Shown one piece after another: positions 1,374 through 19,467 of a DNA stretch of 64,000 nt (the first letter of the stretch is position 1; each line of letters begins with the position of its first letter). Source of the DNA: a virus; IMG/VR virus record IMGVR_UViG_3300042402_003181, one strand, 5' to 3'. The translations under genes were made by a program, and so were the position numbers. The notes beneath the pieces were generated by a model, which had not been told where the DNA came from, did no database searches, and saw nothing but the letters and a program-made list of their open reading frames with translations.

Positions 1374-4300
1374 ATGGCTGAATTTAAACTAGGTAGAATA
1401 CGATTCATATGGAAAGATGAGTGGACTCCATCCACATCTTATCTACGAGATGATGTTGTTAGAAACGGTGGTAAAGCATACGTTTGTATAGCAGGGCATA
1501 CTAGCTCTGTTTTGTTTACAACTGATTTAACCGGTATTCCTACAAAATGGAATCAAGTATCTGACGGTACTACATGGAGATCAAACTGGACAGTTAACAC
1601 ATATTACAATTTAAATGATTTAGTAAAATATGGTGGAATTGTATATATCTGTAATAATAGTCACAACTCTGCAGCAACTCTTGTATTAGGCCTTGAAGCA
1701 AATCAAAGCAATTGGACATTATATGCAACTAGCTTTGATTGGAAATCAACTTGGACAGTATCAACAAGATATAAAAAGAATGATGTTGTAAAATATAGTG
1801 GTAGAAATTATGTGTGTAATGCTGGTCATACTTCTGCAGCAACATCTGCGCTGGGTCTTGAAAATGATCAAGGTAAATGGGATTTATTTACTGATGGTTT
1901 TACATGGTTAACTGATTGGACAGTATCAACAAGATATAAAGTAAATGATGTTGTAAAGTATGGAGGACAGACATATGTGTGTAATGCTGGTCATACTTCT
2001 GCAGCAACCGCTACGTTAGGTCTTGAAAATGATCAAGGTAAATGGGATTATTTCCATAAAGGTGTTAATTATTTAGGTCAATGGAGTGGAAGTTCTGTTC
2101 GTTATACAGTTAATGACTTAGTAAACTACGGTGCCGATGTTTGGATATGTACAACATACCATACATCATCTACACTATTTGAAGAATCAAACTGGGCAAG
2201 ATTTGTTGAAGGGTTAACTTATGAAGATTCATGGGATAACGCAACACTTTATCAGCCTGGAGATATTGTTGGGTACGGTGGTTATTCATATATTAGTAAA
2301 ACTAATAATTCAAATAAAACTCCTACTGCTAACGCAAGTGATTGGTCTTTATTTACAACCGGATTTTCGTTTATTGGAGATTGGGCATCTGGGCAATCAT
2401 ATTTAGTTGGTGATGTTTTACGAAATGGTGCGTACACTTACGTAGTTACAGCTGATCACACTTCTGCATCTAACAATCAACCACCAAATGTTACTTATTG
2501 GTCAAGATTAAACTCAGGGGTAAAATGGGCAAATACTAATAAGACATATACTGCATTAGCAGGTACAAACATAACAGCTGCTGGCAGCTCTGCAACATTT
2601 GATGTTAGTACAATTGGTACTTCTTACACTGTTACTAAAAATGCAGGTGGTACTGGATATGCTGCAAATACAACCATTAAGATATTAGGTACACAAGTTG
2701 GCGGGTTATCACCGTTTAATGACGTGTTAATTACTGTTGCTACTGTTTCGGGTAATGCAATTGCTACTATTACAGCAACTGGCTATGCAGCAACATGGGA
2801 TACTAGTGTTAACTATGTGTTAGGCGATACTATAAGTGTTGGACCAAACAGTTATATTTGTATTTTAGCACATACAAGTGCAAGTGGTAACAGACCGGAT
2901 GTTGATGTATCAGGACAGTACTGGAATGTGATTGCTGCGGGTGCGCAAGACTCGGTGTTAACAACAGCTGGTGATATACCATACATGAGTCAAAGTGGTC
3001 CTACACGATTAGCAATCGGTGACCCTGGTCAGGTGTTAAAAGTTTCACCAACGTTACTACCATCGTGGGGATATTTTGGTGTTATTGATCAAATTTATTA
3101 TGTTGGGCAGACTGGCTTAAATAATCCAGCACCAAGTTATGGCGCAACTTTAGATCGTCCGTGGTTAACTGTTAGATATGCAGCTGAACAAGTTACAAAC
3201 GGACCATTAAATCCAAATGCAAAATATTTCTTAACAAATAACCGGGCATATATTCAAAAAGAAGTTATTGGATGGATTAATTCACAAATAACTAATAATA
3301 CACTACCATTTACATCAGCATTTACTTATAATGAAAGTAAATGTGAGCGTGATATTGGCTATGTAGTTGATGCGTTAGCTTATGACTTATCGCATGGTGG
3401 CAATGCTAAAGTTGTAGAAGTTGCTCAATCGTATGTATCCGGAAGTTACACTGTATTAGGTACCCAATCAAGCCAAGATGTTGCTGGATATAACTATATG
3501 TTGTCTGTTATTAATTCAGTAATTGCAAGTACTTCACCAAATACTTCATATCAAGCAACAGTAACAAGAGTTTCAAATAATCTTAAACCTGTTGAACCTG
3601 GCGTAGTTACATTGTTATCAAATTTAGTAGGTGTTATCACAGCAGCAATTACTGCCGGTGTAAGTACAAATATTCCGGCGGTTGTTAGTACAACTTATTC
3701 TATTTTTGTTAAAACAGGGATTTACTATGAAACACTTCCAATTATTGTTCCAGATAATACGTCAATTATTGGAGACGAATTACGATCAACAAATATTAGA
3801 CCGTCCCCGTCGTTAATTGCAAGTAACGATATTGCAAAATCAATTTCAGCAGTTACATATATTCAATCAATTACGTCAGATATTATATCAAACACTACAG
3901 TTGCATCGCCGTATCAGGTTACAGTTTCTCAAGATGTGCATTTGCCAGCAGGATCTGTCGGTAGTACGTCTGCAGTAACTGCAGTATCGGAAAATGCCGA
4001 TGTAATGTACACAATTCTCAATGGCGGTACAGTGTCAGCACCTCCTTATACATACACCGACCCAACAAGTTATAATACTGGATTTTTAAATGCTAGACGA
4101 TTAATTAATGCTAACAAACAATTTTTAAAAGATGAAGTTACTGCATTTATGGTACTTAATTACAGTTCAATATGGACTATGTTAGGTCCAGCAGGTCAAG
4201 CATCATGTACGCGTGATATTGGCTATATTGTTGATGCAGTATACTACGATTTAACATACGGGACTACTCTTATTCCTTGTAATTTAGCTACAACAATTGT

Positions 4301-7300
4301 TGCAAGATCATATTATAGCAATAATAATTTTGTTGAATTAATTACTGAAAAACCTGCAGCATTGGCTGTTCAAGATAGAATTAAAACAATTATCGCAAGC
4401 ATTGCACAAGGCACTGCGATTACTAGAACTACCGGAAACACTACTACGCAAGATGTTAGTGGTTCGGGAGGTTCGACGAATGCTGGTACATTTGCACAAG
4501 ATCGTATTCAAGAAATTTATAATACTATAAACACCGGAATTACACCAACATTACTTGCACCAACAACAAGTTGGGTTGCTAGCGGTCTAGTTGCAGCAAA
4601 TACTGCATTACAAGCAGCAAAATCACAAATACAACTTGATTGTCTAGCGTATGTTAAAGCGCATAATGCAACATTATTGTTTAATCAAACTACGTGTTCG
4701 CGAGATGTTGGATATATGATTGACGCAATTGGGTATGATATGATGTTTGGAAGTAATTTCTTATCATGTCAAACTGGCATGTCGTATTACAGAGCAGTAG
4801 CGTCGGCACAAATTGTATTATCAGGACAAAAATCTGCAACTTTAGGAATGATAACGTTCTTAAAATATACTGCAAAATATATTGCAGCATCGGGATCAGC
4901 AGCACTTGCTAATGCATTGTGGACAGATGTTATTGCAAATATGAGCGGAACAAGTGTTCCAAATGCAGGCAGCAACTTTACAAATGCAAGTAATGACGCA
5001 ATTAATGGCGCATATCAGTTGCTTGCAAATGCTGATTTTCTTGCAGCTGAATCAGTTGCGTATATTAATACATTTAATACTACTGTTACTGCAAGTTCAA
5101 CTACTACATTCACATGTACAAGCACCAGTTGGATGGTAGCCGGAGACAAAATTACATTTACTGGATCAATATTTGGTGGAATTAATTTAAGTGTTAACTA
5201 TTATATTCATACAGTAGTTAACGGAGTTTCGTTTAAAATTTCATCTACAGTAGGTGGATCTGCAGAAACCTTAACTACTGGTACTGGATCTATGATTGTT
5301 TCTTATGTTTATGATCCAATTTCGTGTGCAAGAGATATGAAAATTTTAGTAACTTCAGTTGCTAATGACATTATTAATATTGGAAATTATTCATCTCAAT
5401 GGAGTGCAGCGTGTTATTCAACTGCAGTATCTGGTTCTCTGTTATCTGATATGTTCTATGTTAGAAATTCAACAGGTATTAGGAATTTAACAGTACAGGG
5501 ATTAACTGGCACTTTAGGACCTGTAAATAGCTATGGTACAAAACGTCCAACTGCTGGCGCATATGTTAGTTTAGACCCAGGTTGGGGACCAAATGATAGA
5601 CGTACCTGGATTACATCACGGTCACCGTATATTCAAAATGTTACAACATTTGGTACAGGGTGTATTGGGTTAAAGATTGATGGAACTATACACAGTGGCG
5701 GAAACCGTTCTGTTGTAGCAAACGACTTTACTCAAATTTTAAGTGACGGTATTGGTGTTTGGTGTACTGGTTCACAATCATTAACTGAATTAGTATCTGT
5801 GTTTTCGTACTACGGATATATGGGATACTTAGCTGAGAACGGCGGTAAAATTCGTGCTACTAATGGTAACAGCTCGTATGGTACGTATGGCACAGTTGCT
5901 GAAGGTGTTGATATTTATGAAACTCCATTGATTGCAACGGTTAACAATTATGCTAACCAAGCACTTATTACTAATGTAATAACTAACGCAGTTGATAGAA
6001 TTTACAGAGTTGAATTCTTAAATGCTGGTACAAAGTACAATACTGCTACATTTTCATTTAGTGGAACAGGTTACGGTGCAGTATCAGTTGCTAACGAATT
6101 TAGAGATAACGCAGTGTTTGAAACAAAATTGTTATCAAATGGTGAAAATTATGTAACATCTGCTAACACTGGACAGTCAGGCAATACTACATCAATAACC
6201 ATTGCTGCAGTTGATTTGGCAATTAATTCAACATATATTGGAATGAGCATTCAAATAACTAGTGGTTTAGGAACAGGACAATACGGCTATATTGTAAGAT
6301 ATAATTCAGGATCTAAAGTAGCAATGGTTGCAAAAGAAAGTTTCAGTGCAATAGTTGCAACCGGAACGACTGTTACTTCAAATCTAATCACAGTTCCGAG
6401 TACTGCTACATTATATGTTAACATGCCGGTTATATTTACCGGAACTGCAATTGGTGGATTAGCAGTTGGAACAGTGTACTATGTAATTTCTACAGGATTT
6501 ACATCAACTCAATTTTCAGTTAGCACAAGCGTTGGAGGATCAGCAGTTACTTTATCGACAATAACTGCAAGTACAATGACTTTAAATGCTGCAGGATGGG
6601 ATCATGTGGTATCAGGTACTCCAATTCTAGCAGCGTTAGATACTACCTCATCGTATATAATTGAACCAAGAGTACAATTTGCAAGTCCTGGTTATTCTGC
6701 AACGTCAGTAACACAACAAAATGCTGCATGGATTGATTCAATTTACGGGGATATTAATACTACGTATACAGCAGTATCACCGACTGGGGGTGCTGGTACA
6801 AGTGCAACATTTAATATAGTTAAAACTGGTGTATCATATGCAGTTACTTTAAATGCAGGCGGTATTAATTATGTTAAAGACAATGTATTAACTATATTAG
6901 GTACGAGTTTAGGCGGAGCTGCTCCATTAAACAACTTAACGATTACTGTAAATAACGTTGTAAACGGTGTTATTAGTAACTTTACATATAACGGTTTAGG
7001 AGCTGGCGGTAATTATGTTGCAATCGCAGGTTCAGGTACATTAACTCAATATAGTGTTGATGGTACTAATTGGGTCACAGGAGGAGCTCTTCCAGTTAGT
7101 TCGTCATGGACTGCAGTAACTTATGGTACATTAAGCGGAGTAGGTACATGGGTTGCAGTACAAAACGGATCATTAAATACTGCAAAAAGTGTAGATGGCG
7201 GCGCAACATGGTCAAGTGCAGGATCGTTATCAACAACAGGTAATTGGTCAGATGTTGCATACGGCAATAATAGATACATTGCAGTGTTATCCGGATCAGC

Positions 7301-8867
7301 TACTGCTAATATTACATCAAATGCTACTGTATGGACATCAACTGGTGCATTACCTACGCCTACTACGTGGACTAGTGTTGCATATGGAGCAGGTACATGG
7401 GTAGCAATTGCAAGTGGTGGCACATCTGCTGCATATTCAATTAATGACGGAACTTCATGGACACCTGCAGCATTACCAGTTGCTGCAACGTGGAAAAGTG
7501 TTACGTATGGTAATGGTAAATTTGTAGCAATTGCAAGTGGAAGTACTATTGCTGCATATTCGTTAAATGGTATCACATGGTACTCAAGTCAGCCGTTGCC
7601 AGCATCGCAAGCATGGACACAAGTAAAATACGGACAAGGTGTATTCTTTGCAGTAGCAACCGGTACTACAACTATTGCTGCATCGTCAGAAGATGGAATT
7701 GCATGGATTAGCAGAACGTTATTAACATCAACATCTTGGCCTACTGTATCATTTGGTAATCCAAATAGTACTCCAATTTGGGCAGCGTTATCAAGTGCAA
7801 CTACGACTGCTAACAATATTGTTACTGGTGCAACGGCTCAAGGTCGTGTTAAAGTATCGTCAGGTTCTATATCAGAATTTAGAATTGTTGAACCTGGAAG
7901 CGGTTACAATGCAATACCAATTGTAACTGTAACTGACTCAAACGTAACCGCTCCATTTACATGGCAAGTAAGAACAGGGGTAGGTGTATTAGCAAACCCG
8001 ACATTTAATAATAGAGGAACCCAGTATTCAGTTGCATCTGCAAGCGTAATTGGTAACGGATATGCTGATATGTTCCAACCAGGAAATTATGTTAATATTT
8101 CAGGTTTAGCATCAGCTCCAATTCCAGGTTCAAATGTTGTATTTACTGGGGATCCAACTTATTATAAATTGGTTGCAGTATTGAATTATATGGGGACTGG
8201 CGGAGGGCAATCCCCATATAACGCCACACTACAGCTAAGTCCTGCAGTACCAATTGCAAATGCGCCAGCACACGGAGTTATTGCAACTATGCGAATTCAA
8301 TATAGTCAAGTTCGATTAACAGGACACGACTTTTTAAATATTGGAACTGGTAATTTTCCAAGCACTAACTTCCCTGGTGCACCTGCATTAGCAGTTGATT
8401 CAGAAAAACAAACTGTGGCATTTGGCGGCGGACGGGTATTCTATACAAGCACTGACCAAGATGGTAACTTTACGGTAGGTAATTTGTTCTCAGTACAACA
8501 ATCAACTGGTGTTGCAACATTGAATGCAGATGCATTTAACATCGCAGGGTTAAATCAGTTAACATTAGGTTCAGTAACATTAGGCGGCACAAGTGCTACT
8601 ATTACTTCATTTTCAACTGATCCGTATTTTACAGCAAATAGCGATAATGTAATACCAACACAAAAAGCTATTAAATCATATATTAGTAGCCAAATCGGTG
8701 GAGGTGGTAGTTCTCTGAACGTAAATACAATAACCGCAGGTGTTGTGTATATTGCAGGCAACACTATTTCAACAACAACGGGTGTACAGATCAATGTAGC
8801 AAACACTATGAATTTCATAGGCGGTGTATCTGGATCACCGCTAGCAATGAACTTCTTATTATCTTAA
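1374..8867 (+). CDS. 2497-aa modular virion structural/tail-fibre-like protein: N-terminal carbohydrate-binding-like W..Y..D.V...G..Y.C...HTS repeats, helical CxRD repeats, beta-helix-like region, beta-propeller-like repeats, conserved C-terminal module
   Basis: ORF track; GGAG RBS and AATAAATA upstream; repeats visible in the translation (e.g. WTVSTRYKVNDVVKYGGQTYVCNAGHTS, WTSVAYGAGTWVAIASGG). Confidence 0.8.
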   Translation: MAEFKLGRIRFIWKDEWTPSTSYLRDDVVRNGGKAYVCIAGHTSSVLFTTDLTGIPTKWNQVSDGTTWRSNWTVNTYYNLNDLVKYGGIVYICNNSHNSAATLVLGLEANQSNWTLYATSFDWKSTWTVSTRYKKNDVVKYSGRNYVCNAGHTSAATSALGLENDQGKWDLFTDGFTWLTDWTVSTRYKVNDVVKYGGQTYVCNAGHTSAATATLGLENDQGKWDYFHKGVNYLGQWSGSSVRYTVNDLVNYGADVWICTTYHTSSTLFEESNWARFVEGLTYEDSWDNATLYQPGDIVGYGGYSYISKTNNSNKTPTANASDWSLFTTGFSFIGDWASGQSYLVGDVLRNGAYTYVVTADHTSASNNQPPNVTYWSRLNSGVKWANTNKTYTALAGTNITAAGSSATFDVSTIGTSYTVTKNAGGTGYAANTTIKILGTQVGGLSPFNDVLITVATVSGNAIATITATGYAATWDTSVNYVLGDTISVGPNSYICILAHTSASGNRPDVDVSGQYWNVIAAGAQDSVLTTAGDIPYMSQSGPTRLAIGDPGQVLKVSPTLLPSWGYFGVIDQIYYVGQTGLNNPAPSYGATLDRPWLTVRYAAEQVTNGPLNPNAKYFLTNNRAYIQKEVIGWINSQITNNTLPFTSAFTYNESKCERDIGYVVDALAYDLSHGGNAKVVEVAQSYVSGSYTVLGTQSSQDVAGYNYMLSVINSVIASTSPNTSYQATVTRVSNNLKPVEPGVVTLLSNLVGVITAAITAGVSTNIPAVVSTTYSIFVKTGIYYETLPIIVPDNTSIIGDELRSTNIRPSPSLIASNDIAKSISAVTYIQSITSDIISNTTVASPYQVTVSQDVHLPAGSVGSTSAVTAVSENADVMYTILNGGTVSAPPYTYTDPTSYNTGFLNARRLINANKQFLKDEVTAFMVLNYSSIWTMLGPAGQASCTRDIGYIVDAVYYDLTYGTTLIPCNLATTIVARSYYSNNNFVELITEKPAALAVQDRIKTIIASIAQGTAITRTTGNTTTQDVSGSGGSTNAGTFAQDRIQEIYNTINTGITPTLLAPTTSWVASGLVAANTALQAAKSQIQLDCLAYVKAHNATLLFNQTTCSRDVGYMIDAIGYDMMFGSNFLSCQTGMSYYRAVASAQIVLSGQKSATLGMITFLKYTAKYIAASGSAALANALWTDVIANMSGTSVPNAGSNFTNASNDAINGAYQLLANADFLAAESVAYINTFNTTVTASSTTTFTCTSTSWMVAGDKITFTGSIFGGINLSVNYYIHTVVNGVSFKISSTVGGSAETLTTGTGSMIVSYVYDPISCARDMKILVTSVANDIINIGNYSSQWSAACYSTAVSGSLLSDMFYVRNSTGIRNLTVQGLTGTLGPVNSYGTKRPTAGAYVSLDPGWGPNDRRTWITSRSPYIQNVTTFGTGCIGLKIDGTIHSGGNRSVVANDFTQILSDGIGVWCTGSQSLTELVSVFSYYGYMGYLAENGGKIRATNGNSSYGTYGTVAEGVDIYETPLIATVNNYANQALITNVITNAVDRIYRVEFLNAGTKYNTATFSFSGTGYGAVSVANEFRDNAVFETKLLSNGENYVTSANTGQSGNTTSITIAAVDLAINSTYIGMSIQITSGLGTGQYGYIVRYNSGSKVAMVAKESFSAIVATGTTVTSNLITVPSTATLYVNMPVIFTGTAIGGLAVGTVYYVISTGFTSTQFSVSTSVGGSAVTLSTITASTMTLNAAGWDHVVSGTPILAALDTTSSYIIEPRVQFASPGYSATSVTQQNAAWIDSIYGDINTTYTAVSPTGGAGTSATFNIVKTGVSYAVTLNAGGINYVKDNVLTILGTSLGGAAPLNNLTITVNNVVNGVISNFTYNGLGAGGNYVAIAGSGTLTQYSVDGTNWVTGGALPVSSSWTAVTYGTLSGVGTWVAVQNGSLNTAKSVDGGATWSSAGSLSTTGNWSDVAYGNNRYIAVLSGSATANITSNATVWTSTGALPTPTTWTSVAYGAGTWVAIASGGTSAAYSINDGTSWTPAALPVAATWKSVTYGNGKFVAIASGSTIAAYSLNGITWYSSQPLPASQAWTQVKYGQGVFFAVATGTTTIAASSEDGIAWISRTLLTSTSWPTVSFGNPNSTPIWAALSSATTTANNIVTGATAQGRVKVSSGSISEFRIVEPGSGYNAIPIVTVTDSNVTAPFTWQVRTGVGVLANPTFNNRGTQYSVASASVIGNGYADMFQPGNYVNISGLASAPIPGSNVVFTGDPTYYKLVAVLNYMGTGGGQSPYNATLQLSPAVPIANAPAHGVIATMRIQYSQVRLTGHDFLNIGTGNFPSTNFPGAPALAVDSEKQTVAFGGGRVFYTSTDQDGNFTVGNLFSVQQSTGVATLNADAFNIAGLNQLTLGSVTLGGTSATITSFSTDPYFTANSDNVIPTQKAIKSYISSQIGGGGSSLNVNTITAGVVYIAGNTISTTTGVQINVANTMNFIGGVSGSPLAMNFLLS
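1751..2048 (+). repeat. Intragenic tandem duplication, 165-nt (55-aa) period
   Basis: ttggacagtatcaacaagatataaa...tatgtgtgtaatgctggtcatacttctgcagcaac...ggtcttgaaaatgatcaaggtaaatgggatt occurs at 1751-1883 and 1916-2048 with high nucleotide identity. Confidence 0.9.
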
Positions 8868-8882
8868 CAAGGAAAAACAAAT

Positions 8883-9206
8883 ATGGCAACAGGAAGATTA
8901 GGCGCAGTGAATCTTGTAGCAGGAACAGATACGTTATTGTATACTGTTCCTGCTGGGACTTTCACAGTAGCAACAGTATCGATAGTAAATAGAAGTAACG
9001 TTTCGGTTACTGTGAGAATTGGTTTATCTACATCAACAACAACAATCGGTGCTTCTGAATTTATTGAGTATGACACTGAATTGCTACCAAAGGGTGTACT
9101 TGAACGAACAGGGTTAGTACTTGATGCAACTAAAACTATTTTAGTTAGATCAAGTACAGCAAACGTAAATGCAGTTGCATACGGAATTGAGACCCCAACG
9201 TCATAA
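8883..9206 (+). CDS. Small beta-rich virion structural protein (107 aa)
   Basis: ORF with AAGGA RBS; sequence type (LYTVPAG...VSIVNR...V.VR) typical of small tail-associated proteins of large myophages. Confidence 0.65.
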   Translation: MATGRLGAVNLVAGTDTLLYTVPAGTFTVATVSIVNRSNVSVTVRIGLSTSTTTIGASEFIEYDTELLPKGVLERTGLVLDATKTILVRSSTANVNAVAYGIETPTS

Positions 9207-9228: not shown

Positions 9229-9555
9229 ATGGGAAGATATATAACAACAACAGGGACCGCAGGTGCAGTAAATAGATCAGTAAGTACTACATACACTGCA
9301 CAGGTAAATGATAGAATTATCTGTACAGCCGGCGGTTTTACAATTACATTACCAAATAGTGCAACTTGCATTGATGGTGATACAATTCAAATACTCGATG
9401 TTACTGGAGTATTTGGATCAAGTAACGTTACTGTAGCACGAAGCGGTGCTGCAAATATACAAAATTTAGCAGAAAATTTAATATTAAACATTAATAATGC
9501 ATCCATTACACTACTTTATACAGTATCAAATGGTTGGATTATTGCTGGCAAGTAA
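9229..9555 (+). CDS. Small tail-fibre/baseplate-associated protein (108 aa)
   Basis: GAGG RBS, CATAAATA upstream; FTITLP...GDTIQILDVTG.F...NVTVAR module common in T4-like fibre proteins. Confidence 0.65.
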   Translation: MGRYITTTGTAGAVNRSVSTTYTAQVNDRIICTAGGFTITLPNSATCIDGDTIQILDVTGVFGSSNVTVARSGAANIQNLAENLILNINNASITLLYTVSNGWIIAGK

Positions 9556-9565
9556 GGAGCAGTGA

Positions 9566-10342
9566 ATGGCAAATTTACGAGATTTATCGTTAATTGTTCC
9601 ACCAGTTTTTGCATCGTATGCGCCTAAACAATTAATGATTATGAACGGCAGAGAAGGGGTTGGTGTTACAACCGGAAACACTTGCTGTTGCTGGATAGTG
9701 CCGTCAGGTACAACTTGGGCTACATTTGAAGTATACGGGTCCGGCGGAGACGGCGCTGGTGGGTGTTGTTGTATGGGATCATGCATGGCATCCGGCAATG
9801 GTATGTACGTAGTAAAAACTATTCAAACATGCGGCTGCGCATTTTATAATATTTGTGTTGGTATGTCAGGTTGTTGTTCACCAAACTGTTGCGGCACATG
9901 TGGGTTTCCTAGTTATGTTACAAACACTGCAGGTTCTATGGTTGCGTGTGCTAGTGGAGGAGTAGGCGGTACTACCGGTTGTTGGATGATGTCACAAGCA
10001 AGCTATCAAGGAATTAACTGTGGTGGTAGAGTTTGCGGGTGTTGTGGTCTTGGAGATATGCAATATCCAAGTATGACTCAAGGATCCAAACATAGTAGCT
10101 ATTGTGCAAACCATAATTTTCCATTTTTGTCGGGTACTTATCAATATGCACCAAATACTAGACACGGGCAAGATGACTGTTCGGTTGGGTATGCAGGATC
10201 AGGTTGTATGAAATGGTGTGCATCACCGTCTAATGCAACATCATGGCCCGGCGGCGGCGGTGCAAACGGTCTCGGATGTGGTGGCGCTTGTTGTTGGGGA
10301 AGTTGGGGTACACCTGGAATGGTTTTAATTACATACGGATAA
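9566..10342 (+). CDS. Cys-rich/Gly-rich fibre-tip-like protein A (28 Cys in 258 aa)
   Basis: AAGGAG RBS; CCC motifs; W.VP.G.TWATFEVYG.GG.G and G..GMV.ITY framework of phage Gly-rich domains. Confidence 0.75.
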   Translation: MANLRDLSLIVPPVFASYAPKQLMIMNGREGVGVTTGNTCCCWIVPSGTTWATFEVYGSGGDGAGGCCCMGSCMASGNGMYVVKTIQTCGCAFYNICVGMSGCCSPNCCGTCGFPSYVTNTAGSMVACASGGVGGTTGCWMMSQASYQGINCGGRVCGCCGLGDMQYPSMTQGSKHSSYCANHNFPFLSGTYQYAPNTRHGQDDCSVGYAGSGCMKWCASPSNATSWPGGGGANGLGCGGACCWGSWGTPGMVLITYG

Positions 10343-10354
10343 AGAGGATATAGT

Positions 10355-11029
10355 ATGGCAGAAAATACAAATATAGAAAAAACGTTTACATATGATATTG
10401 CCGACCAATATTTATACCAAACAAATAAATTAAAAAGAAAAGCAGAATGGACGTATAAAGGTCCTGACAAGCTTTGGATTTTTATTGACAGTTCTACTAA
10501 TAAAATTAGTAGTAGATTTCATTATACTGAACGAGATGAGGGTGCAGATGTACCTACCCCAGACGGACAAATTAAAGTGTTAGTAGATGCAACAGTAAAT
10601 CCAGATATTGCAAGTTTAATTCATAACGAATGGGATTACGGATCATTGCCGCATACTACCGAAGAATTACCTAACGGTGCAGTGTATGGTCATCCGGATC
10701 CGATTCCGCCTGATCATACATACGAGTTAACTGAAATTACGTATGATACTAAAAAAAGTAAATTTGTTAAACCGTATCCATGGAAACAACCACATGTATC
10801 GTGGGATGACATTAGTGATCAACGTAATAATTGCTTATCATGGTCAGATCTTCAATATGTACAAGCACCTGAAAATAAAAAAATTGAATGGGAAGAATTT
10901 CGTCAAACGTTAAGAGACTTGCCAACAGTGTTTAAAGATATTGATCCATGGAAAGTTCCATTTCCACATCATCCGGGATCAGAGCCTCCTGTTTTTAGAG
11001 TTGGAGAACCAACTACTGGGAGTACATAA
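10355..11029 (+). CDS. Tail-fibre assembly chaperone-like protein A
   Basis: C-terminal WDDISDQRNNCLSWSD...W.EFRQTLRDLP resembles the phage tail assembly chaperone motif (R..RN.LL..SD...W..YRQ.LRDLP). Confidence 0.75.
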   Translation: MAENTNIEKTFTYDIADQYLYQTNKLKRKAEWTYKGPDKLWIFIDSSTNKISSRFHYTERDEGADVPTPDGQIKVLVDATVNPDIASLIHNEWDYGSLPHTTEELPNGAVYGHPDPIPPDHTYELTEITYDTKKSKFVKPYPWKQPHVSWDDISDQRNNCLSWSDLQYVQAPENKKIEWEEFRQTLRDLPTVFKDIDPWKVPFPHHPGSEPPVFRVGEPTTGST

Positions 11030-11790
11030 TGGCAAGTTTAACTACATTATTTCCCGATAGTAGGTATTCTATTTCAATTGGTGGTGTAACACAGTTATCT
11101 GTATTGTATGTGTACAATACTAATACAACATCTGTTACAAACGGTGGCATTTGTTGCGGATGGACAGTGCCCACAGGCGCTACGTGGGCACTGTTTGACG
11201 TATGGGGAGGCGGCGGCAGCGGCGCCGGGGCATGTTGTTGTCAACAGCCTTTTCAAGCAGGAGCATCGGGATCATATACAAGAAAATATACTCGAGTAAA
11301 TCCTGGTGAGGTTTATACAATCTGTGCAGCCGGATCTGGATGTTGTTCAACAACGTGTTGTGGCGTATGTGGGTATCCGTCGTACGTATGTAATGCATCT
11401 GCAACGTATCCAGTATGTTTGTGTGCAAGCGGCGGATGTGGTGGTCAGTCTCAGTGCTTTATAGCTAATGGAGGATGCTATCCATCATTAAGTTGTGTAA
11501 CTGGTACAACGTGCGGCGGCTCATTAAGTATGTGTGGACATTTTGCAAGCGACCACGGCGGAGGTTCATGTGCATTTGAGCACTGGCATTATGTTCCAGG
11601 TGCTCCTTATAAATCAAGCGGTGTTCGAGTGTCACGTGACAGCTGCGGTCTGCTTAGTGGATGTCAGATGATGGGAGACACTCCTCCATTATTTCCAGCC
11701 GGCGCTGGAGCAACTTCATCAGTACATGGTGGCGCCTGTTGTTGGGGACAATGGGGAGCCGGTGGCATGATAAAAATAACATACAGATAA
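11029..11790 (+). CDS. Cys-rich/Gly-rich fibre-tip-like protein B (25 Cys in 253 aa)
   Basis: Paralogue of 9566-10342; TAATG stop/start coupling to the upstream gene. Confidence 0.75.
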   Translation: MASLTTLFPDSRYSISIGGVTQLSVLYVYNTNTTSVTNGGICCGWTVPTGATWALFDVWGGGGSGAGACCCQQPFQAGASGSYTRKYTRVNPGEVYTICAAGSGCCSTTCCGVCGYPSYVCNASATYPVCLCASGGCGGQSQCFIANGGCYPSLSCVTGTTCGGSLSMCGHFASDHGGGSCAFEHWHYVPGAPYKSSGVRVSRDSCGLLSGCQMMGDTPPLFPAGAGATSSVHGGACCWGQWGAGGMIKITYR

Positions 11791-11799
11791 AGGAATAAT

Positions 11800-12531
11800 A
11801 TGTCAAATTTAAGATCACTAGCATATACTGCAACAACTACCCTTGTACCAAATTACCCAATTGAACTATTAGTGTATAATACATCAATGTCAGGGGCAAA
11901 TGGCGGATGCTGCTGTTTATGGACAGCACCAGCTGGTACTACTAATATAATATTTGAATTATGGGGTGGAGGAGGCGGTGGCGGTATGGCATGTTGTTGT
12001 CAATACGGACCAGGCGGTGGCGCCGGTGGGTATGCGAAAAAAACAATTTCTGGTAAGTTAGCCGGTTGCCAATATACTATATGCGCTGCTAGCAGTACCG
12101 GATGTTCTCAATCACTAACAGGTTGTACTGGATCAACTTCGTATGTGACAGGATACGGCTTATCAAATTTCTGCGGTGCAGGGGGTAGCGGCGGATGTAC
12201 ACAATGTTTTGCATTTGGAAGTTGTTATATTTGTAATGTATCCGGATGTTGTGCAATAGCAACTGGTGGAGATGTGTGTGCTGCTGGTTATACTGGTTCG
12301 GCAATACAAAATACATTTTGTTATTTCAAATCACAGCAATTTTCTGCTCTTGCGGCATCAACCGGATCCGGTGCGTGGGCAGGACCGGGAGGTTGCGGAC
12401 CAATGGGGGGTGGTGGCACATGGACTCCGTATTTTCCAGGCGGCGGCGGATGGAACGCAAATGTTTCTGGAAACGTTTGCTGTTACGGCGGATGGGGCGC
12501 AGGCGGGCTAGTATCAATTACTTACGGATAA
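11800..12531 (+). CDS. Cys-rich/Gly-rich fibre-tip-like protein C (22 Cys in 243 aa)
   Basis: Paralogue of A and B; AAGGA RBS. Confidence 0.75.
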   Translation: MSNLRSLAYTATTTLVPNYPIELLVYNTSMSGANGGCCCLWTAPAGTTNIIFELWGGGGGGGMACCCQYGPGGGAGGYAKKTISGKLAGCQYTICAASSTGCSQSLTGCTGSTSYVTGYGLSNFCGAGGSGGCTQCFAFGSCYICNVSGCCAIATGGDVCAAGYTGSAIQNTFCYFKSQQFSALAASTGSGAWAGPGGCGPMGGGGTWTPYFPGGGGWNANVSGNVCCYGGWGAGGLVSITYG

Positions 12532-12535
12532 TAAT

Positions 12536-13183
12536 ATGAATAAAATTACACATACATTTACATACGACTTACCGGATGATTACTTAGCACAAACTAATAT
12601 ACTCGGTAAAGTTGCAACTTGGACATATAATGGTCCAGATAAAATTTGGATTTTTTTAGACAAAGAAACTAATAAAATTGTTGGAAATTTTTTAACTGAA
12701 GATGATAAAGGCGGAGAAATACCAGTTCCATTAGATCAATATCGAATAGAAATTGATCCTACAGTTGATCCAATTATAGCAACATTAGTTGGTGCAGATG
12801 AACTGCCCGATTATGCAACTTTAGAACAATATACCGAAGAATTGCCGTGTGGTAATACGTATACTCGTCCATTATGTCCACCACCTGACCATACATATGA
12901 ATTATTAGACATTACGTACGATGTTGAAAATTCTACGTTTGTAACTCCACTTCCGTGGAAACAACCACATATAACATGGGATGGTATTAGACAATGGCGG
13001 AATCATTTATTAGATGGTTCTGATTATAATGAATTGCCAGATATGCCAGCTGCGGTGTTATCTAACTGGGTAGCGTATCGACAAGGATTGCGTGATTTAC
13101 CGCAAACATACGGTGCGTCAAGTGGTTCAACTATTCCACCGGTTGATCCGTGGAAAATCCAACCAATTAATCCACCAAATTAA
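12536..13183 (+). CDS. Tail-fibre assembly chaperone-like protein B
   Basis: Paralogue of 10355-11029 (TFTYD..D.YL.QTN, PPDHTYEL..ITYD, PWKQPH..WD, YRQGLRDLP, DPWK). Confidence 0.75.
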   Translation: MNKITHTFTYDLPDDYLAQTNILGKVATWTYNGPDKIWIFLDKETNKIVGNFLTEDDKGGEIPVPLDQYRIEIDPTVDPIIATLVGADELPDYATLEQYTEELPCGNTYTRPLCPPPDHTYELLDITYDVENSTFVTPLPWKQPHITWDGIRQWRNHLLDGSDYNELPDMPAAVLSNWVAYRQGLRDLPQTYGASSGSTIPPVDPWKIQPINPPN

Positions 13184-13191
13184 CAGTCATT

Positions 13192-13219
13192 AAAAAAGGA
13201 GCTAATAGCTCCTTTTTTA
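13192..13219. terminator. Bidirectional rho-independent terminator between convergent operons
   Basis: aaaaaa-ggagct-aat-agctcc-ttttttt: perfect stem flanked by A and T tracts. Confidence 0.85.
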
Positions 13220-15022
13220 TTAGTTAGCAACTTTGATTATTTTTTGTAATTCTGGAAGATAAACATATTCAATTTTACTATGGTATAACGTATGCACTGC
13301 ATCGTCTAAAGTTTCTACTAAGGGATCTCCACCTAGATTAAAACTAGTGTTAAATAATATTGGAACTCCTGTCTTTTCATAAAAGTCATTAATTAAATTG
13401 TAATAATGATAATTTTGTTCAGAAGTTACTGTTTGAATTCTGCAAGTATCATCAACATGAATAATACTTGGAATTTTTTCTTTAACACCCGGTTGGCAAT
13501 TTACAGCATACATCATATAAGGACTGTCTTCCATTCCTTTTAAATCAAACCATTCATGAACATGCTCTTGTAAGATTGAACCGGCAAACGGTCTAAAGTA
13601 TTCTCTGTTTTTAATTTGATTAACAAAGTCTTTTCCATCTTCATATGTTGGATTAAACATTAATGATCTGTTACCTAATGCACGAGGTCCATTTTCAGAT
13701 CTTCCTTGGAACATTGCAACGATATTTTTATTTAAAAGCAAATCAACTACTGTACTATTATCGGCATCTAATATTTCAGCTCCATACCAGTTAACATATT
13801 TTTGCAAATCGTCATCTGTATAATTGTATTCAAATCCAAGATATAATCTGTTTTTAGTATGATCAACATGCATGTGAGGATATTTTCTGTTAAACACTAA
13901 TAATGCTGCACCTATTGCAGTTCCTGCATCATTACTAATTGGTTCAACATATAATTTAATACCTTCTTCTGCTAATTGGTCTAAGTATGAATAATTTGCT
14001 ACGCAATTTAATCCATAACCCCCACTTAACACTACTTGCTTTTGACCAGTTTTCTTAACAGCTGATCGAATTAAATCTAATACTTGCTGTTGTGTTTCAG
14101 ACTGGCATGCCCATGCTAAATCTCTTCTATTATCATTTAATGTAACATCAGTTTCTGGCAAATCATTAAGATAATCGTACAACATATAGTTTACAGATGC
14201 GCCATTTGGATATGTTGGAACAATAATATTTCTATTTGCTAATGCTGCAATAGAAGTATCATCAAATAATTTAGGAATTTTATCAGTTGCTTTACCATAC
14301 GGAGCTAATCCCATAGTTTTACCAGCTTCAATAGATGACCATCCGCAATATTGTGTTACTGCTTCATAAACTTTTGTAATGCCTGCTCGATCAGTAATTA
14401 ATGCTTCATGGGTAGATTCCGGTTCTTCATACATTCCGCTATCAAACTCTGTAACTAATGCACCTGGTAACGGACCTCTAACACCAATATGTTTATACAC
14501 AGTTTTAAACCATGTAGGATATGCACAGTCAAAAACTGATTCAGTTTCCCAACCAGTCATTTGTTCACCATTGTTTGAAGTTAATGTAATAAACGTACCT
14601 GCACCGTCTACAATTACTGCAGTTGCTTCTCTAAATCCAGATCTATAAAATGCACATGCAGCATGCAATTTATGATGATAATGACTTAGATCAATCACTT
14701 GAGGGTGTTGATACATATTCTCAGTACGACTAATTAATCCTAACTTTCTTGCAAGACCAGTATAAATATCTTCACCAGTAAAATCAACTCTTCCAGCAGT
14801 ATCTGATAATTTTTGAGTATGTGCAATTACAATAAAATCTAATCTATCGGTATAATCTAAAATTTTTAAAAATGCAGCAAACGGCCCGCCGTCATACTTA
14901 TTACGACTAACTCGTTCTTCTTCAATACTAAAAACAATTTCACCGTTTTTAGTTAAGCATACACTACTATTATGTCCTCTAGCGATGCCTGCAATCCAAA
15001 TATCTTTGTTTATTAAATTCAT
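13220..15022 (-). CDS. Carbamoyltransferase, NodU/CmcH/TobZ family (full length: Kae1-like N-domain plus YrdC-like C-domain)
   Basis: GHNSSVCL...FSIEEERVSRNK, HHKLHAACAFY, VIVDGAG, GKTMGLAPYG, SGGYGLNC, GRSENGPRALGNRS, KNREYFRPFA, HVDDTCRIQTV, NTSFNLGG motifs. Confidence 0.93.
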   Translation of the reverse strand: MNLINKDIWIAGIARGHNSSVCLTKNGEIVFSIEEERVSRNKYDGGPFAAFLKILDYTDRLDFIVIAHTQKLSDTAGRVDFTGEDIYTGLARKLGLISRTENMYQHPQVIDLSHYHHKLHAACAFYRSGFREATAVIVDGAGTFITLTSNNGEQMTGWETESVFDCAYPTWFKTVYKHIGVRGPLPGALVTEFDSGMYEEPESTHEALITDRAGITKVYEAVTQYCGWSSIEAGKTMGLAPYGKATDKIPKLFDDTSIAALANRNIIVPTYPNGASVNYMLYDYLNDLPETDVTLNDNRRDLAWACQSETQQQVLDLIRSAVKKTGQKQVVLSGGYGLNCVANYSYLDQLAEEGIKLYVEPISNDAGTAIGAALLVFNRKYPHMHVDHTKNRLYLGFEYNYTDDDLQKYVNWYGAEILDADNSTVVDLLLNKNIVAMFQGRSENGPRALGNRSLMFNPTYEDGKDFVNQIKNREYFRPFAGSILQEHVHEWFDLKGMEDSPYMMYAVNCQPGVKEKIPSIIHVDDTCRIQTVTSEQNYHYYNLINDFYEKTGVPILFNTSFNLGGDPLVETLDDAVHTLYHSKIEYVYLPELQKIIKVAN

Positions 15023-15025
15023 TTT

Positions 15026-15943
15026 TTAAAATCCTTGCGGTGATCCGGGCCACGTTAATTTAGCAGCTTCGGGTGGAAATTTTTCTTTATTTGCAAGTGA
15101 AAAATCAAATGCATATCGATTAGTTCTATATTTTTGGTGTTGCTGATCAATGTAGTCAACTAATAAACCTACAGAATTAAAAAAGTTTTCTGATAACGAT
15201 ATTTTTTCTGATAATTCACTTTTTAACCATAACAAATGTTGCCTTGCTGACGGGTGTAAGTCAGGAAATTTAGAACCATCGGATGCAACGAACTCATAAG
15301 TTAATTCTAAGCAGGTTTGACAAAATTCTTCAAATGGCATTAACCAATGATCTTTGTGATCTTCCCATATTGGTTTTTCATATACCTGTAAATCAGGTAA
15401 AATTGCCCATCCAACGTACCCTGTTGCATGTTTAAGAGCGTTTTTAGTTAACTCAGTTTTTTCACCATAATCTTCTTTATCTCTCATATTAGAACCTAAA
15501 TTACGAATATCACTAATACTTGTCATATACCATTGGCATCCTGTTGATTTTAGTAACCCTTGAGTCATTGAAATAAAGTTTAAAGTATGCATAAAATATG
15601 CAGGTTCGTAAAAAAACGTGTTAACCCATTTTTTATCATATAATTTTACATTATGATAATTGAAGATACTACCGTATGTTTTCCAGCCGTCAACTCGTTC
15701 TGGCATACTTTCTTGATGCCACCAATCGTTTCTTAAATGAGATGACCATTGGACAATTACAATATCATCTTTTGTAAATTGAAATTTAGCATTTGCTTCT
15801 GAAATTCGTTCAGCAATTGCTTGGTTTCCAATACCGGATAACCCCCAATTATGCACTTCGTCAAATTCTAAGTCTAAAAAATTAGCCCATGTAGGCCAGG
15901 AGTAGCAAGTATAACTACATCCAAATGCAAATATTCTTTTCAT
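15026..15943 (-). CDS. SGNH/GDSL-like protein (putative esterase/acyltransferase); start likely MKRIFAFG at 15943
   Basis: FGCSYT block I-like, G.SG.GN block II-like and C-terminal DLHP motif; ATG 1 nt after upstream stop. Confidence 0.55.
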   Translation of the reverse strand: MKRIFAFGCSYTCYSWPTWANFLDLEFDEVHNWGLSGIGNQAIAERISEANAKFQFTKDDIVIVQWSSHLRNDWWHQESMPERVDGWKTYGSIFNYHNVKLYDKKWVNTFFYEPAYFMHTLNFISMTQGLLKSTGCQWYMTSISDIRNLGSNMRDKEDYGEKTELTKNALKHATGYVGWAILPDLQVYEKPIWEDHKDHWLMPFEEFCQTCLELTYEFVASDGSKFPDLHPSARQHLLWLKSELSEKISLSENFFNSVGLLVDYIDQQHQKYRTNRYAFDFSLANKEKFPPEAAKLTWPGSPQGF

Positions 15944-15944
15944 A

Positions 15945-16952
15945 TTATTTTGGGCAGCAAGCTGAAGTTGGAGCAGCAGATGATTCAATTGCTACTGTTG
16001 TATTAACTGGATTTTTAAATTTTCTACTACCTTTTATTACAGAATCAACAATTGCATCTTCAATTTTATCATTCATTATCATAATACCGTCATTACCTCG
16101 ATCAGCAACTTCATCCATTGTTATTCTAATCGGACTGTATCGTCTAATATCTCCACCCATATCTAAAACATCAAACTTATCATAATCCGGATAGGAAACG
16201 TTAATTGAGAATGTTGATCCTACTACAATAGTAGCTGGTTTATCTAACGAATATGCTAAATGTTGTCCTACAGAATCACAACCTAAGAAGTAGTCTGCAT
16301 TTGCAATAATGCCTGCCCATTTACGTAGATCAATGTTTTGTGGCATTGCAACTACGTCTTTACAACCATGTTTAGCAAATTCAATACCAAATTCTGCCAT
16401 TACTACTACTGCAAAATTTTTCTGTAATTTTTTAACAATATTCAGTAAATGAGTACTTTCAAAACTACGTCCAGATGCATCATATATAACACCGTCCTTG
16501 TTAGTTACGCCACGACCAAATGGTTGAAACACAACTACTTTGTCTTTTTTAGTTTTTTCTTTAACTTCTTTAATTGCAAAATAACCTGTAAGCATTTCGT
16601 CATTTGATAACCGCATTGTTGGTTTTTGTAATGTTCTAACGCCTTTATTGTTAATTGCAATATCATATGCTTGCGCAATTGAACATTTTTGATTATAATA
16701 TTCCCAAATACGATATGGTTCTGGAGATACTAAATCCATATTAATAAGTTTATCTTCAAATAAATTTTTGTGCCAATGATCGTACGCACGTTCGTGTAAT
16801 AACGGATGGCCTTTATAAAAGTCAGTGCCGCCTTCGCATACTATAATAAAATCTTTACTAACTTCTTCTGCGTATTTTTCTAATGCTGGTATAGAACAGA
16901 TTACTCTACCTGCTCCTCCATTGATAAAAAACGCTTTTGCTCTTTCTGTCAT
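15945..16952 (-). CDS. GT-B glycosyltransferase, GT9 (heptosyltransferase)-like
   Basis: N-terminal GGAGRVICSIPAL and C-terminal IIANADYFLGCDSVGQHLAYSLDKPATIVVGST match the GT9 D.G..HLA.AL..P...G.T pattern; AAGGAG RBS. Confidence 0.7.
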   Translation of the reverse strand: MTERAKAFFINGGAGRVICSIPALEKYAEEVSKDFIIVCEGGTDFYKGHPLLHERAYDHWHKNLFEDKLINMDLVSPEPYRIWEYYNQKCSIAQAYDIAINNKGVRTLQKPTMRLSNDEMLTGYFAIKEVKEKTKKDKVVVFQPFGRGVTNKDGVIYDASGRSFESTHLLNIVKKLQKNFAVVVMAEFGIEFAKHGCKDVVAMPQNIDLRKWAGIIANADYFLGCDSVGQHLAYSLDKPATIVVGSTFSINVSYPDYDKFDVLDMGGDIRRYSPIRITMDEVADRGNDGIMIMNDKIEDAIVDSVIKGSRKFKNPVNTTVAIESSAAPTSACCPK

Positions 16953-18660: not shown

Positions 18661-19467
18661 ATGACATTATTGTGTTCATTAAAATCAACTACGTTTTGGG
18701 TTTCTACTACTGGTTCGTTACCGTCTGCTGTTGGCCAACAGGCATATGCATCTGCCGGCACGTATTTTTGGACAGCGCCAATTGGCGTTACATCTGTATG
18801 TGTTGTGTGTGTCGGGGGCGGTGGCGGTGGAGGGTACGGTAATTCTGCTAATTGGAATGGGTCTGCAGGCGGCAATTTAAGATATGCTAACAATATACCA
18901 GTAGTTCCAGGTAATGCGTATACTGTTGTAGTCGGCGCAGGCGGAACTAACTACTTAACTACTGGTAACCCAAACGGAGGAGCTGGTGGTACTAGTTCAT
19001 TCAACGTATCATCTGTAATAGCAACTGGCGGTGGCGGTGGTGGAGCAGTAGCCGGTGTTTCAACATCTTCCGGTAACGTTGGATTCGGCGGTAATGGCGG
19101 TAATGGACTTGTAACTGTTGACGGCGGTGGTGGAGGGGCAGGCGGTTATTCCGGTAACGGCGGTGCCGGTGGCTCGGTTGCCCCTCCGGGAGGAGGCGGC
19201 GCAGGTGGTCGAAACGGGAGCGGTGGCCCAGGTGGGGGTGGGGTTGGAATTTACGGCGAAGGCCCGTCGGGGTCAGTTACAGGCGGCGGAGGGTCAGGCG
19301 GCGGTTCTACAGTCGACGGAAGCGGAGGCGGATCGTATCAAGCAGGCGGCTTGTTTGGTGGAGGCGGCGGTTCTGGATACAGCGGCGGACCAGGCGCAAG
19401 CGGCGCAGTTAGAATAATTTGGGGACCAAACAGATCATTCCCTTCAACTAATACTGGTAATTTATAA
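18661..19467 (+). CDS. Glycine-rich fibre-tip/adhesin-like protein (gp38-like polyglycine domain)
   Basis: WTAP.GVTSV.VV.VGGGGGG, VVPG..YTVVVGAGG, GASGAVRIIW framework; very Gly-rich. Confidence 0.75.
   Translation: MTLLCSLKSTTFWVSTTGSLPSAVGQQAYASAGTYFWTAPIGVTSVCVVCVGGGGGGGYGNSANWNGSAGGNLRYANNIPVVPGNAYTVVVGAGGTNYLTTGNPNGGAGGTSSFNVSSVIATGGGGGGAVAGVSTSSGNVGFGGNGGNGLVTVDGGGGGAGGYSGNGGAGGSVAPPGGGGAGGRNGSGGPGGGGVGIYGEGPSGSVTGGGGSGGGSTVDGSGGGSYQAGGLFGGGGGSGYSGGPGASGAVRIIWGPNRSFPSTNTGNL

Follow-up and report, generated by a model that had tools for sequence, protein, structure and literature searches.

Three paralogous genes, A, B and C, lie within positions 9566–13183 of a 64,000-nucleotide stretch of viral DNA, here called the window, which comes from a virus contig of 175.9 kb in IMG/VR (record IMGVR_UViG_3300042402_003181). 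They encode small proteins in which 9–11% of the residues are cysteine. Our reading, which we hold at a probability of roughly 0.55, is that A, B and C make up the host-recognising heads at the distal end of a long tail fibre in a marine T4-like phage and that their cysteines serve as structural cross-links. Homology and genomic context give good support to a role in host recognition at the fibre tip, and we infer that the proteins are present in the virion and bind a receptor. Host recognition by marine T4-like cyanophages is poorly known, though such phages shape Prochlorococcus and Synechococcus populations, and the module to which these genes belong gives concrete candidates in the cultured model phages P-SSM2, S-SSM7, S-CAM1 and S-CAM3.

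In the mechanism that we propose, each head would consist of a TNF-like β-sandwich joined to a reduced glycine-rich lattice, and a short N-terminal peptide, M-x-x-L-R-x-L-L, would probably dock it onto the fibre made from the upstream genes. Cytoplasmic folding and assembly of the heads would fall to two Tfa-type chaperones, which, like gp25 of phage Pam3, are probably not kept in the virion. The cysteines, which we take to act as structural cross-links, would stay reduced inside the cell. In oxygenated water, a partly redundant disulfide network would then form, with some of its links probably running between chains, and these disulfides would harden a tip that must last long in the open.

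Cysteine-rich heads and their chaperones

Cysteine accounts for 10.9% of A (28 of 258 residues; 9566–10342, plus strand), 9.9% of B (25 of 253; 11029–11790, plus strand) and 9.1% of C (22 of 243; 11800–12531, plus strand); the mean across the 46 open reading frames (ORFs) of at least 150 residues in the window is 1.06%. CCC triplets are found at A40–42, A67–69, B69–71, C37–39 and C65–67 (B42–43 is CC), and a CC pair lies near the C terminus of each protein (A242–243, B237–238 and C227–228). Both features fall at equivalent positions in the alignment of A, B and C, and the counts and the alignment agree with what had been described in an earlier reading of the window made from its letters and ORFs (hereafter the sequence-only reading). 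The three paralogues share only 33–40% identity. More than 300 homologues retain both the reading frame and the cysteines, so the genes are real and not an artefact of composition.

We aligned 327 distinct members of the family and assessed the conservation of each cysteine column, numbered as in C. Nine columns were 88–98% conserved (C38, C39, C65, C67, C95, C125, C136, C174 and C199), and seven columns reached at least 93%. The C-terminal CC is split over columns C227 and C228 at 73–76%, with C227 at 91% in a smaller alignment. About 15 more columns hold cysteine in 30–80% of members, and variable cysteine columns are numerous in the C-terminal half. Conservation of the cysteine positions among homologues was a point on which the sequence-only reading had staked its idea, and with ten near-invariant columns at 88% or more in the 327 proteins the idea survived.

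To assess the fold, C was modelled with AlphaFold2 (AF2) from 114 homologues; the model reached a predicted local distance difference test score (pLDDT) of 84.5 and a predicted template-modelling score of 0.82; its least confident stretches are residues 131–150, 171–180 and 191–210. The best fold match was Pam3 gp24 (7ypx_A; Z 18.3, root-mean-square deviation 3.0 Å, 191 aligned residues). Bxb1 tail-tip chains scored Z 13.6–13.8 over 186–188 residues, the TNF-like plus glycine-rich domains of ALK/LTK scored Z 8–10, and the next unrelated folds had Z of about 5 or less. S16 gp38 (6F45) was missing from the matches in three fold searches (Foldseek and two VIA-align runs), a missing match being no proof of a different fold. 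Where the sequence-only reading had suggested a gp38-type polyglycine fold, the matches point to the head type common to Pam3 gp24, Bxb1 (Z up to 13.8) and ALK/LTK. The broader view of that reading, in which the three paralogues are adhesin-type proteins with a glycine-rich fold, is supported. All three match PHROG 4205 (E 9.5e-24 for A, 3.8e-25 for B and 6.5e-42 for C). On the predicted structure, C is a TNF-like plus glycine-rich head of the Pam3 gp24 type, in which two five-stranded sheets run on into the glycine-rich lattice.

The central GGGGxGG motifs of gp24-type heads (loops L1 and L6 in gp24) are present in the family, WGGGGGGG after strand 2 and GGWGAGG before the last strand, and their glycine columns are invariant or nearly so. 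Glycine makes up 18–23% of each whole tip protein, and C has about 5–6 glycine-rich stretches, with cysteines in the remainder of its C-terminal half. About half of the closer homologues carry Pfam Gly_rich_2 (PF21722). C matches that family at E 3.2e-4 and 21.2 bits, under the 24.3 cut-off, and A and B have no PF21722 match, because the lattice is reduced in these proteins. Around 30 residues precede the head, and the N terminus of the model has one five-residue helix, which aligns with the end of the gp24 helical domain in 7yfw. The M-x-x-L-R-x-L-L peptide is conserved in this N-terminal region and common to all three paralogue groups. A search of Protein Data Bank (PDB) sequences with the cysteine-rich family profile returned only a chance match to RACK1 (E 1).

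The window also encodes a cysteine-poor, glycine-rich paralogue of 268 residues with 3 cysteines and 34% glycine (18661–19467, plus strand), which matches Gly_rich_2 well (E 3.3e-12, 47.4 bits). It has the common framework that had been noticed from the sequence. When it was aligned with all three tip proteins, its identity to A was 24%, and hhalign connected the cysteine-rich profile to it at E 1e-4 over the first 92 columns, with a probability of only 57%. This head sits 5.5 kb downstream, amid other fibre-like genes, and no such cysteine-poor paralogue was found within the flanks of the related loci that we sampled. A further variant of the domain is seen in the giant, almost cysteine-free metagenomic protein P0175 (5418 residues, 11 cysteines). 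Seven separate stretches of it match the family profile, so that tandem copies of the head domain also exist in one chain.

Interleaved with the tip genes are two chaperone genes, chapA (10355–11029, plus strand; 224 residues, 1 cysteine) and chapB (12536–13183, plus strand; 215 residues, 2 cysteines), whose products are 48% identical. ChapB matches Pfam Phage_tail_APC (PF16778) over residues 151–195 with 44.6 bits against a cut-off of 26.6 (E 1.3e-11) and also matches PHROG tail fibre assembly families. ChapA matches PHROG 9740 and tail fibre assembly families, and its Phage_tail_APC score is 21.7 bits (E 1.8e-4), under the cut-off. The only match of chapB to PDB sequences was a weak one to 2KZ6, an uncharacterised protein, at E 0.09 over the Tfa motif. 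The identification of two paralogous assembly chaperones is supported by the chapB score and by the identity of chapA to chapB. We conclude that the description of A, B and C as adhesin heads with dedicated chaperones holds, the relative to which the fold matches point being Pam3 gp24 and not gp38.

Genomic context and distribution

The order A, chapA, B, C, chapB had been proposed from the sequence, and the ORFs coincide exactly with it and with the positions then given. The five genes are tightly packed, all on the plus strand, with intergenic gaps of 12, −1, 9 and 4 nucleotides, and A starts 10 nucleotides past the upstream gene behind an AAGGAG site. The block therefore reads as a single operon that continues from a giant fibre gene (1374–8867, plus strand; 2497 residues, from the ORF list), which heads it. 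Homologues of the giant fibre C terminus lie directly upstream of the cysteine-rich genes in nearly all related loci, and those in S-SSM7, S-CAM3, S-CAM1 and P-SSM2 carry the label 'tail fiber protein'. The terminator that had been proposed for the end of the operon is a bidirectional, terminator-like hairpin at 13191–13219, with a 13-bp stem around a GGAGCT-AAT-AGCTCC core, which folds to −15.6 kcal/mol (z −6.2; none of 200 shuffles was as good). An A run before the stem and a T run after it let the hairpin serve both strands, and it also closes a convergent minus-strand operon. The T4 late-promoter motif TATAAATA showed no enrichment, and none was seen upstream of the tip operon.

To compare copy number and gene order across phages, we used a sample of 83 loci with a family match, comprising 80 from IMG/VR, two from cultured phages and the window. 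The arrangement tip–tip–tip–chaperone was found in 40 loci, tip–chaperone–tip–tip–chaperone (the window type) in 32 and tip–chaperone in 7; 4 were fragments at contig ends. In 81 of the 83 loci, the tip genes have a chaperone-family gene behind them, and the other two are cut by a contig end. The order fibre, tip, chaperone recurs in S-SSM7, S-CAM1, S-CAM3 and P-SSM2 and in the 80 IMG/VR loci.

Two small conserved genes stand between the giant fibre and the tip genes and are kept in most related loci. The first, p107 (8883–9206, plus strand; 107 residues), matches PHROG tail-fibre families and is found upstream in 31 of the 32 window-type loci, as well as in S-CAM3, S-CAM1 and P-SSM2; it is possibly a fibre adaptor. 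The second, p108 (9229–9555, plus strand; 108 residues), matches the C-terminal parts of PHROG fibre families, and in S-SSM7-like loci the best p108 match lies within the same ORF as the fibre C terminus. Together, p107 and p108 may form an adaptor for tip docking.

The family is large, and its cysteine richness is general. A word-indexed search returned 126 homologues, and all 120 that were listed hold 5.9–12.5% cysteine. An exhaustive profile search returned 2166 clusters (at 50% identity) at E ≤ 1e-3 and 377 at E ≤ 1e-10, and 148 of the 149 best cluster representatives hold 4.9–12.2% cysteine. ESM Atlas clusters of the cysteine-rich family are 100% viral, and at least 227 IMG/VR loci carry it. 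Among cultured phages, there are three copies in S-SSM7 and S-SSM6a (28–30 cysteines per copy), in S-CAM3 (24–36) and in S-CAM1 (25–36), and two in P-SSM2 (PSSM2_304 and PSSM2_306, with 36 cysteines per copy); the family is also present in Sf-FS3. Megablast of the region against our phage collection gave no match, and neither did tblastn with A, probably through the low-complexity filter. Neither PHROG 4205 nor PF21722 has an assigned function, and the members of the cysteine-rich family in cultured phages are annotated 'hypothetical protein'. The fold itself is known from Pam3; in the literature that we searched, we found no description of the cysteine richness or the triplication of cyanophage fibre tips, so the cysteine-packed, usually threefold form is undescribed there. 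We conclude that the cysteine-rich, usually triplicated head is a widespread module in marine T4-like phages, including cultured cyanophages, and is not peculiar to the phage in the window.

By its module, that phage is T4-like, marine and related to the Kyanoviridae, and it is not proven to be a cyanophage. We found no psbA in the 176-kb contig, which CheckV rates as 48% complete. A 780-residue structural protein of the contig has only distant jumbo phage matches and does not place the phage. The host may be non-cyanobacterial, and the genome may far exceed 176 kb. A receptor-binding protein from the virion of S-SCSM2R (ORF45, with homologues in S-SSM7) was considered as a possible member of the cysteine-rich family and could not be tied to it.

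State of the cysteines and the neighbouring enzymes

The cysteine data are compatible with a dense, partly redundant cystine network that includes some free or interchain thiols, with metal–thiolate clusters and with partly free thiols. Our best guess is partial or interchain cross-linking on release. We favour this state, with no more than moderate confidence, because virion disulfides have precedents, because the tip proteins are aromatic-rich with a defined β fold and because a cysteine-poor head occurs in the same phage. Since that head has the same fold, the cysteines are a property of the module, not of the fold or the host. In Pam3 virions, disulfides between fibre and wedge have been detected by mass spectrometry and are sensitive to dithiothreitol (PMC9942802), and virion disulfides are also found in phages Jabs and Milano (bioRxiv 10.64898/2026.07.24.740622). 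These three phages set a precedent for virion disulfides where no phage oxidase is known. For a virion protein that is made in a reducing cytoplasm, a cysteine content of 10% is unusual, and it bears on how and when phage disulfides form.

The spacing of the cysteines carries further information. CC pairs are enriched 2.1-fold, CxC 1.5-fold and gaps of 5–6 residues 1.4-fold, and CxxC, at 1.16-fold, is not enriched. We looked for a three-residue cysteine periodicity, as would place the cysteines on one face of polyglycine helices, and saw none. The family alignment has no conserved histidine; given this and the lack of CxxC enrichment, classical zinc or iron–sulfur sites are unlikely. Overall, the spacing fits cystine frameworks better than it fits zinc or iron–sulfur sites.

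Several findings weigh against the reading of A, B and C as cross-linked fibre heads. Cysteine counts show no parity bias, with 166 even and 161 odd among the 327 proteins, and the summed counts of triplets are even in 33 cases and odd in 39. In independent contrasts, variable cysteine columns switch state up to 31 times, and a variable column changes together with its best partner in at most about 5 of 25 contrasts, a test weakened by uncertainty in the loop alignment. If every cysteine belonged to a fixed intrachain pair, counts should be even and columns should change two at a time, and neither is seen; complete intrachain disulfide pairing is therefore unlikely. A search of the 176-kb contig for an Erv1/ALR sulfhydryl oxidase found none, and the same search was also blank in control genomes. 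In the model of C, the first 20 residues have low confidence, with a pLDDT of 58. Finally, the published cyanomyovirus virion proteomes that we found are those of S-SM1, S-PM2 and Syn9 (PMC3037559), phages that the family does not match in the phage collection. Reciprocal pairs of cysteine columns (for example, T172 and an insert column, r 0.96) were considered as candidate disulfides and set aside; they follow clade structure and largely vanish in the contrasts.

Some of the same data could be explained if the cysteines bound metal as thiolate clusters, in the manner of metallothioneins, instead of forming disulfides. CC and CxC are enriched as they are in metallothioneins, and both the lack of parity bias and the single gains and losses of cysteines would fit redundant sets of ligands. 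In T4, the fibre proteins gp37 and gp12 are known to be metal-binding. Metallothioneins, however, typically contain about 30% cysteine, far above the 10% seen here, and the tip proteins are aromatic-rich, with conserved tryptophan, tyrosine and phenylalanine columns and a confident β fold. No conserved histidine, aspartate or glutamate partners were seen, and CxxC lacks enrichment. Moreover, about 75 thiols per set of A, B and C would make a heavy demand for metal in metal-poor sea water. We consider metal binding very improbable.

A different account is prompted by the genes on the far side of the hairpin. The minus-strand cassette there comprises a NodU/CmcH-type carbamoyltransferase (13220–15022; Carbam_trans_C E 3.6e-57, Carbam_trans_N E 2.4e-26), a conserved protein of 320 residues that has no Pfam or NCBIfam match (15026–15988) and a 335-residue, GT9-fold (heptosyltransferase-like) glycosyltransferase (15945–16952). 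The last has no Pfam match and a weak NCBIfam match to heptosyltransferase III (E 3e-4). In Foldseek, its AF2 model (pLDDT 91.4) matched a Veillonella GT9 enzyme (E 1.5e-10, TM 0.63), and also WaaC, heptosyltransferase II and the adhesin heptosyltransferase TibC, with E values to 5e-9. A sigma-70-like promoter, TTGACT-17-TAAAAT, lies ahead of the cassette, separate from the fibre operon.

A survey of the co-occurrence of tips and cassette, as the sequence-only reading had proposed, showed that the two are closely linked. The GT9-fold gene is present in all 32 window-type loci, in 35 of the 40 tip–tip–tip–chaperone loci and in all seven tip–chaperone loci; most of the loci without it have short flanks. 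The carbamoyltransferase is downstream in 31 of the 32 window-type loci and in almost every other locus whose flank is long enough, and the 320-residue protein is found in 30 of the 32 and was not found in other architectures. The orientation of the cassette varies: it lies on the minus strand in the window, and most relatives carry it on the plus strand. In the phage collection, the cyanophages with a GT9-like gene are those with cysteine-rich tips (P-SSM2 by hidden Markov model; P-SSM5 left out), and genes for ADP-heptose synthesis come after the cassette in P-SSM2, S-CAM1 and S-CAM3. In two single-cell contigs of marine viruses, AG-345-P14 (L087:5117–5965) and AG-345-O18 (L088:3027–6172), the tip slot holds proteins of 282, 758 and 290 residues with 9–11% cysteine, all missed by the family profile. 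The slot in these loci has a small fibre-associated protein on one side and, on the other, the chaperone, the GT9-like gene and the carbamoyltransferase. Cysteine richness thus seems tied to the slot, not just to the fold.

The tips may be substrates of their neighbours, the GT9-fold enzyme adding heptose and the carbamoyltransferase, with the 320-residue protein in window-type loci, decorating it, possibly on cysteine, serine or threonine, so that the fibre tip would be glycosylated. Linkage of the GT9-fold gene in either orientation, the coinciding sets of cyanophages and the placing of other proteins with about 10% cysteine beside the same enzymes all favour this account, as do the ADP-heptose synthesis genes and the fold match to TibC, which heptosylates the TibA adhesin. 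On the other side, the enzymes are encoded on the opposite strand with a promoter of their own, which suggests a timing other than that of the fibre operon. They could also alter host lipopolysaccharide, the likely receptor, and a gene that did so would stay linked as well. The larger gene clusters to which the heptose-pathway genes belong (T4-GC 304, 305, 307 and 308) were read as lipopolysaccharide genes of unknown use by Sullivan et al. 2010 (PMC3037559), which counts against tip modification too. The separate promoter decides decisively for neither fibre glycosylation nor receptor modification, and we think it unlikely that the tips are the substrates. The linkage hints either at a glycosylated fibre or at receptor-modifying genes that are coupled to receptor-binding genes.

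Copy number, tip composition and relation to known systems

Three copies are present in 72 of the 83 loci and a single copy in 7 loci, which were confirmed to be truly single. In trees built with FastTree (173 rows) and IQ-TREE (54 rows), window-type copies group by position across diverged phages. Position 2, into which B falls, is one clade in both trees, and positions 1 and 3 are each a single clade in one of the trees and split into two in the second; A and the window-type position-1 copies form one clade in IQ-TREE (SH-aLRT 76) and two in FastTree. In other lineages, the three copies have a clade of their own, as in S-SSM7-like phages (support 100), S-CAM3-like phages (99) and one further locus (L068; 99). 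In IQ-TREE, the three similar copies of locus L048 stand beside the single-copy gene of a related phage (support 100). This clustering of copies by lineage means that triplication recurred or that copies were homogenised yet held at three.

One way to account for this pattern, compatible with A, B and C being cross-linked fibre heads, is that they form a single mixed 1:1:1 trimer, an asymmetric three-part knob where Pam3 gp24 has a homotrimer, and that the chaperones might assemble as a matching trimer of one chapA and two chapB. The prevalence of three copies over one, the grouping by position in window-type loci with joint clustering of triplets elsewhere, and the repeated arrival at three (or its maintenance despite homogenisation, as at L048) are all in its favour. 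So are the N-terminal peptide that the three paralogues have in common, the translational coupling of the tip genes and the trimeric state of the closest solved relative, Pam3 gp24, which has a 3:3 chaperone complex. It sits less well with P-SSM2, which has two copies with N-terminal extensions of about 85 residues. In addition, several giant fibre-like proteins could each bear a homotrimeric tip of their own, and gene conversion could mimic repeated triplication. We regard the mixed trimer as plausible, at a little short of even odds. If the paralogues do co-assemble, the repeated arrival at three would make them a rare example of a phage fibre with broken symmetry.

The P-SSM2 locus (L086:3988–6854, PSSM2_304–306) has two members of 355–356 residues that flank a chaperone-like gene. 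Their N-terminal extensions each include an Ala/Glu/Leu-rich stretch and lie where Pam3 gp24 has its docking helix.

The three genes could instead make three separate homotrimeric tips with differing receptor specificities, by which host range would be widened or hedged, as with alternative tail fibres elsewhere. The low identity among the paralogues (33–40%) points this way, as do the low-confidence stretches of the model and the many variable cysteine columns in the C-terminal half; two chaperones could mean separate assembly lines, and phages with one copy and with two copies exist. However, separate tips leave unexplained why the number is so constant, with four or more copies almost never seen in the sampled loci, and why independent lineages arrived at three. 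We hold this possibility more tentatively. An extended form of our reading goes further than either: an obligate A:B:C knob that evolved repeatedly from single-copy ancestors and whose cysteines are cross-linked or decorated by the linked enzymes, giving a hardened, sugar-coated tip in many marine T4-like phages, including P-SSM2 and S-SSM7. We consider this combination unlikely as a whole.

Several known systems resemble the cysteine-rich heads in part. PHROG 4205 matches A, B and C strongly, and PF21722 (Gly_rich_2) is found in many homologues. Metallothioneins are similar in their enrichment for CC and CxC, whereas the window proteins differ from them in having about 10% cysteine, aromatic columns and a predicted β fold. 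The extracellular TG domain of ALK/LTK has the same supradomain in a ligand-binding animal receptor kinase, with no functional relation to fibres. The Bxb1 tail-tip chains Qa and Qb (PDB 9D93) and the mycobacteriophage polyglycine-rich domains have the same head fold, at 23% identity, in an adhesion device; they differ in being baseplate accessory proteins of a siphophage, from an unrelated phage group. The S16/T2-type gp38 (PDB 6F45) is likewise a small, separate polyglycine-lattice protein at the tip of a T4-like long fibre, with receptor binding by distal loops (PMC9608196). Its fold has attachment helices and a polyglycine sandwich. The differences from the window proteins are the β-helix domain in its middle, the three layers and 10 motifs of its lattice, its capping of gp37 as a single chain and the lack of any sequence match.

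The closest comparison is with Pam3 gp24 (PDB 7YPX, 7YFW), a homotrimeric fibre of the virion for which host binding by the distal glycine-rich loops has been proposed (PMC9608196). It depends on the Mu-Tfa-like chaperone gp25, which engages the head in a 3:3 complex and does not occur in virions (PMC9608196). The likeness lies in the TNF-like plus glycine-rich head, with GGGGxGG-type motifs following the second strand and again at the C terminus, in the Tfa-type chaperone gene directly downstream and in a phage of an aquatic host with virion disulfides. Sequence profiles do not connect gp24 with the cysteine-rich family. The gp24 lattice is about 39% glycine with 12 motifs, whereas A, B and C have 18–23% glycine overall, about 5–6 motifs and 9–11% cysteine, such that about ten near-invariant and 12–18 variable cysteines stand in place of roughly half the glycine motifs. 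A long N-terminal helix trimerises gp24 and docks it to the baseplate, whereas A, B and C have only some 30 residues before the head and lie behind a giant fibre gene. Pam3 has one fibre gene for this purpose, and the phage in the window has three paralogues with two chaperones.

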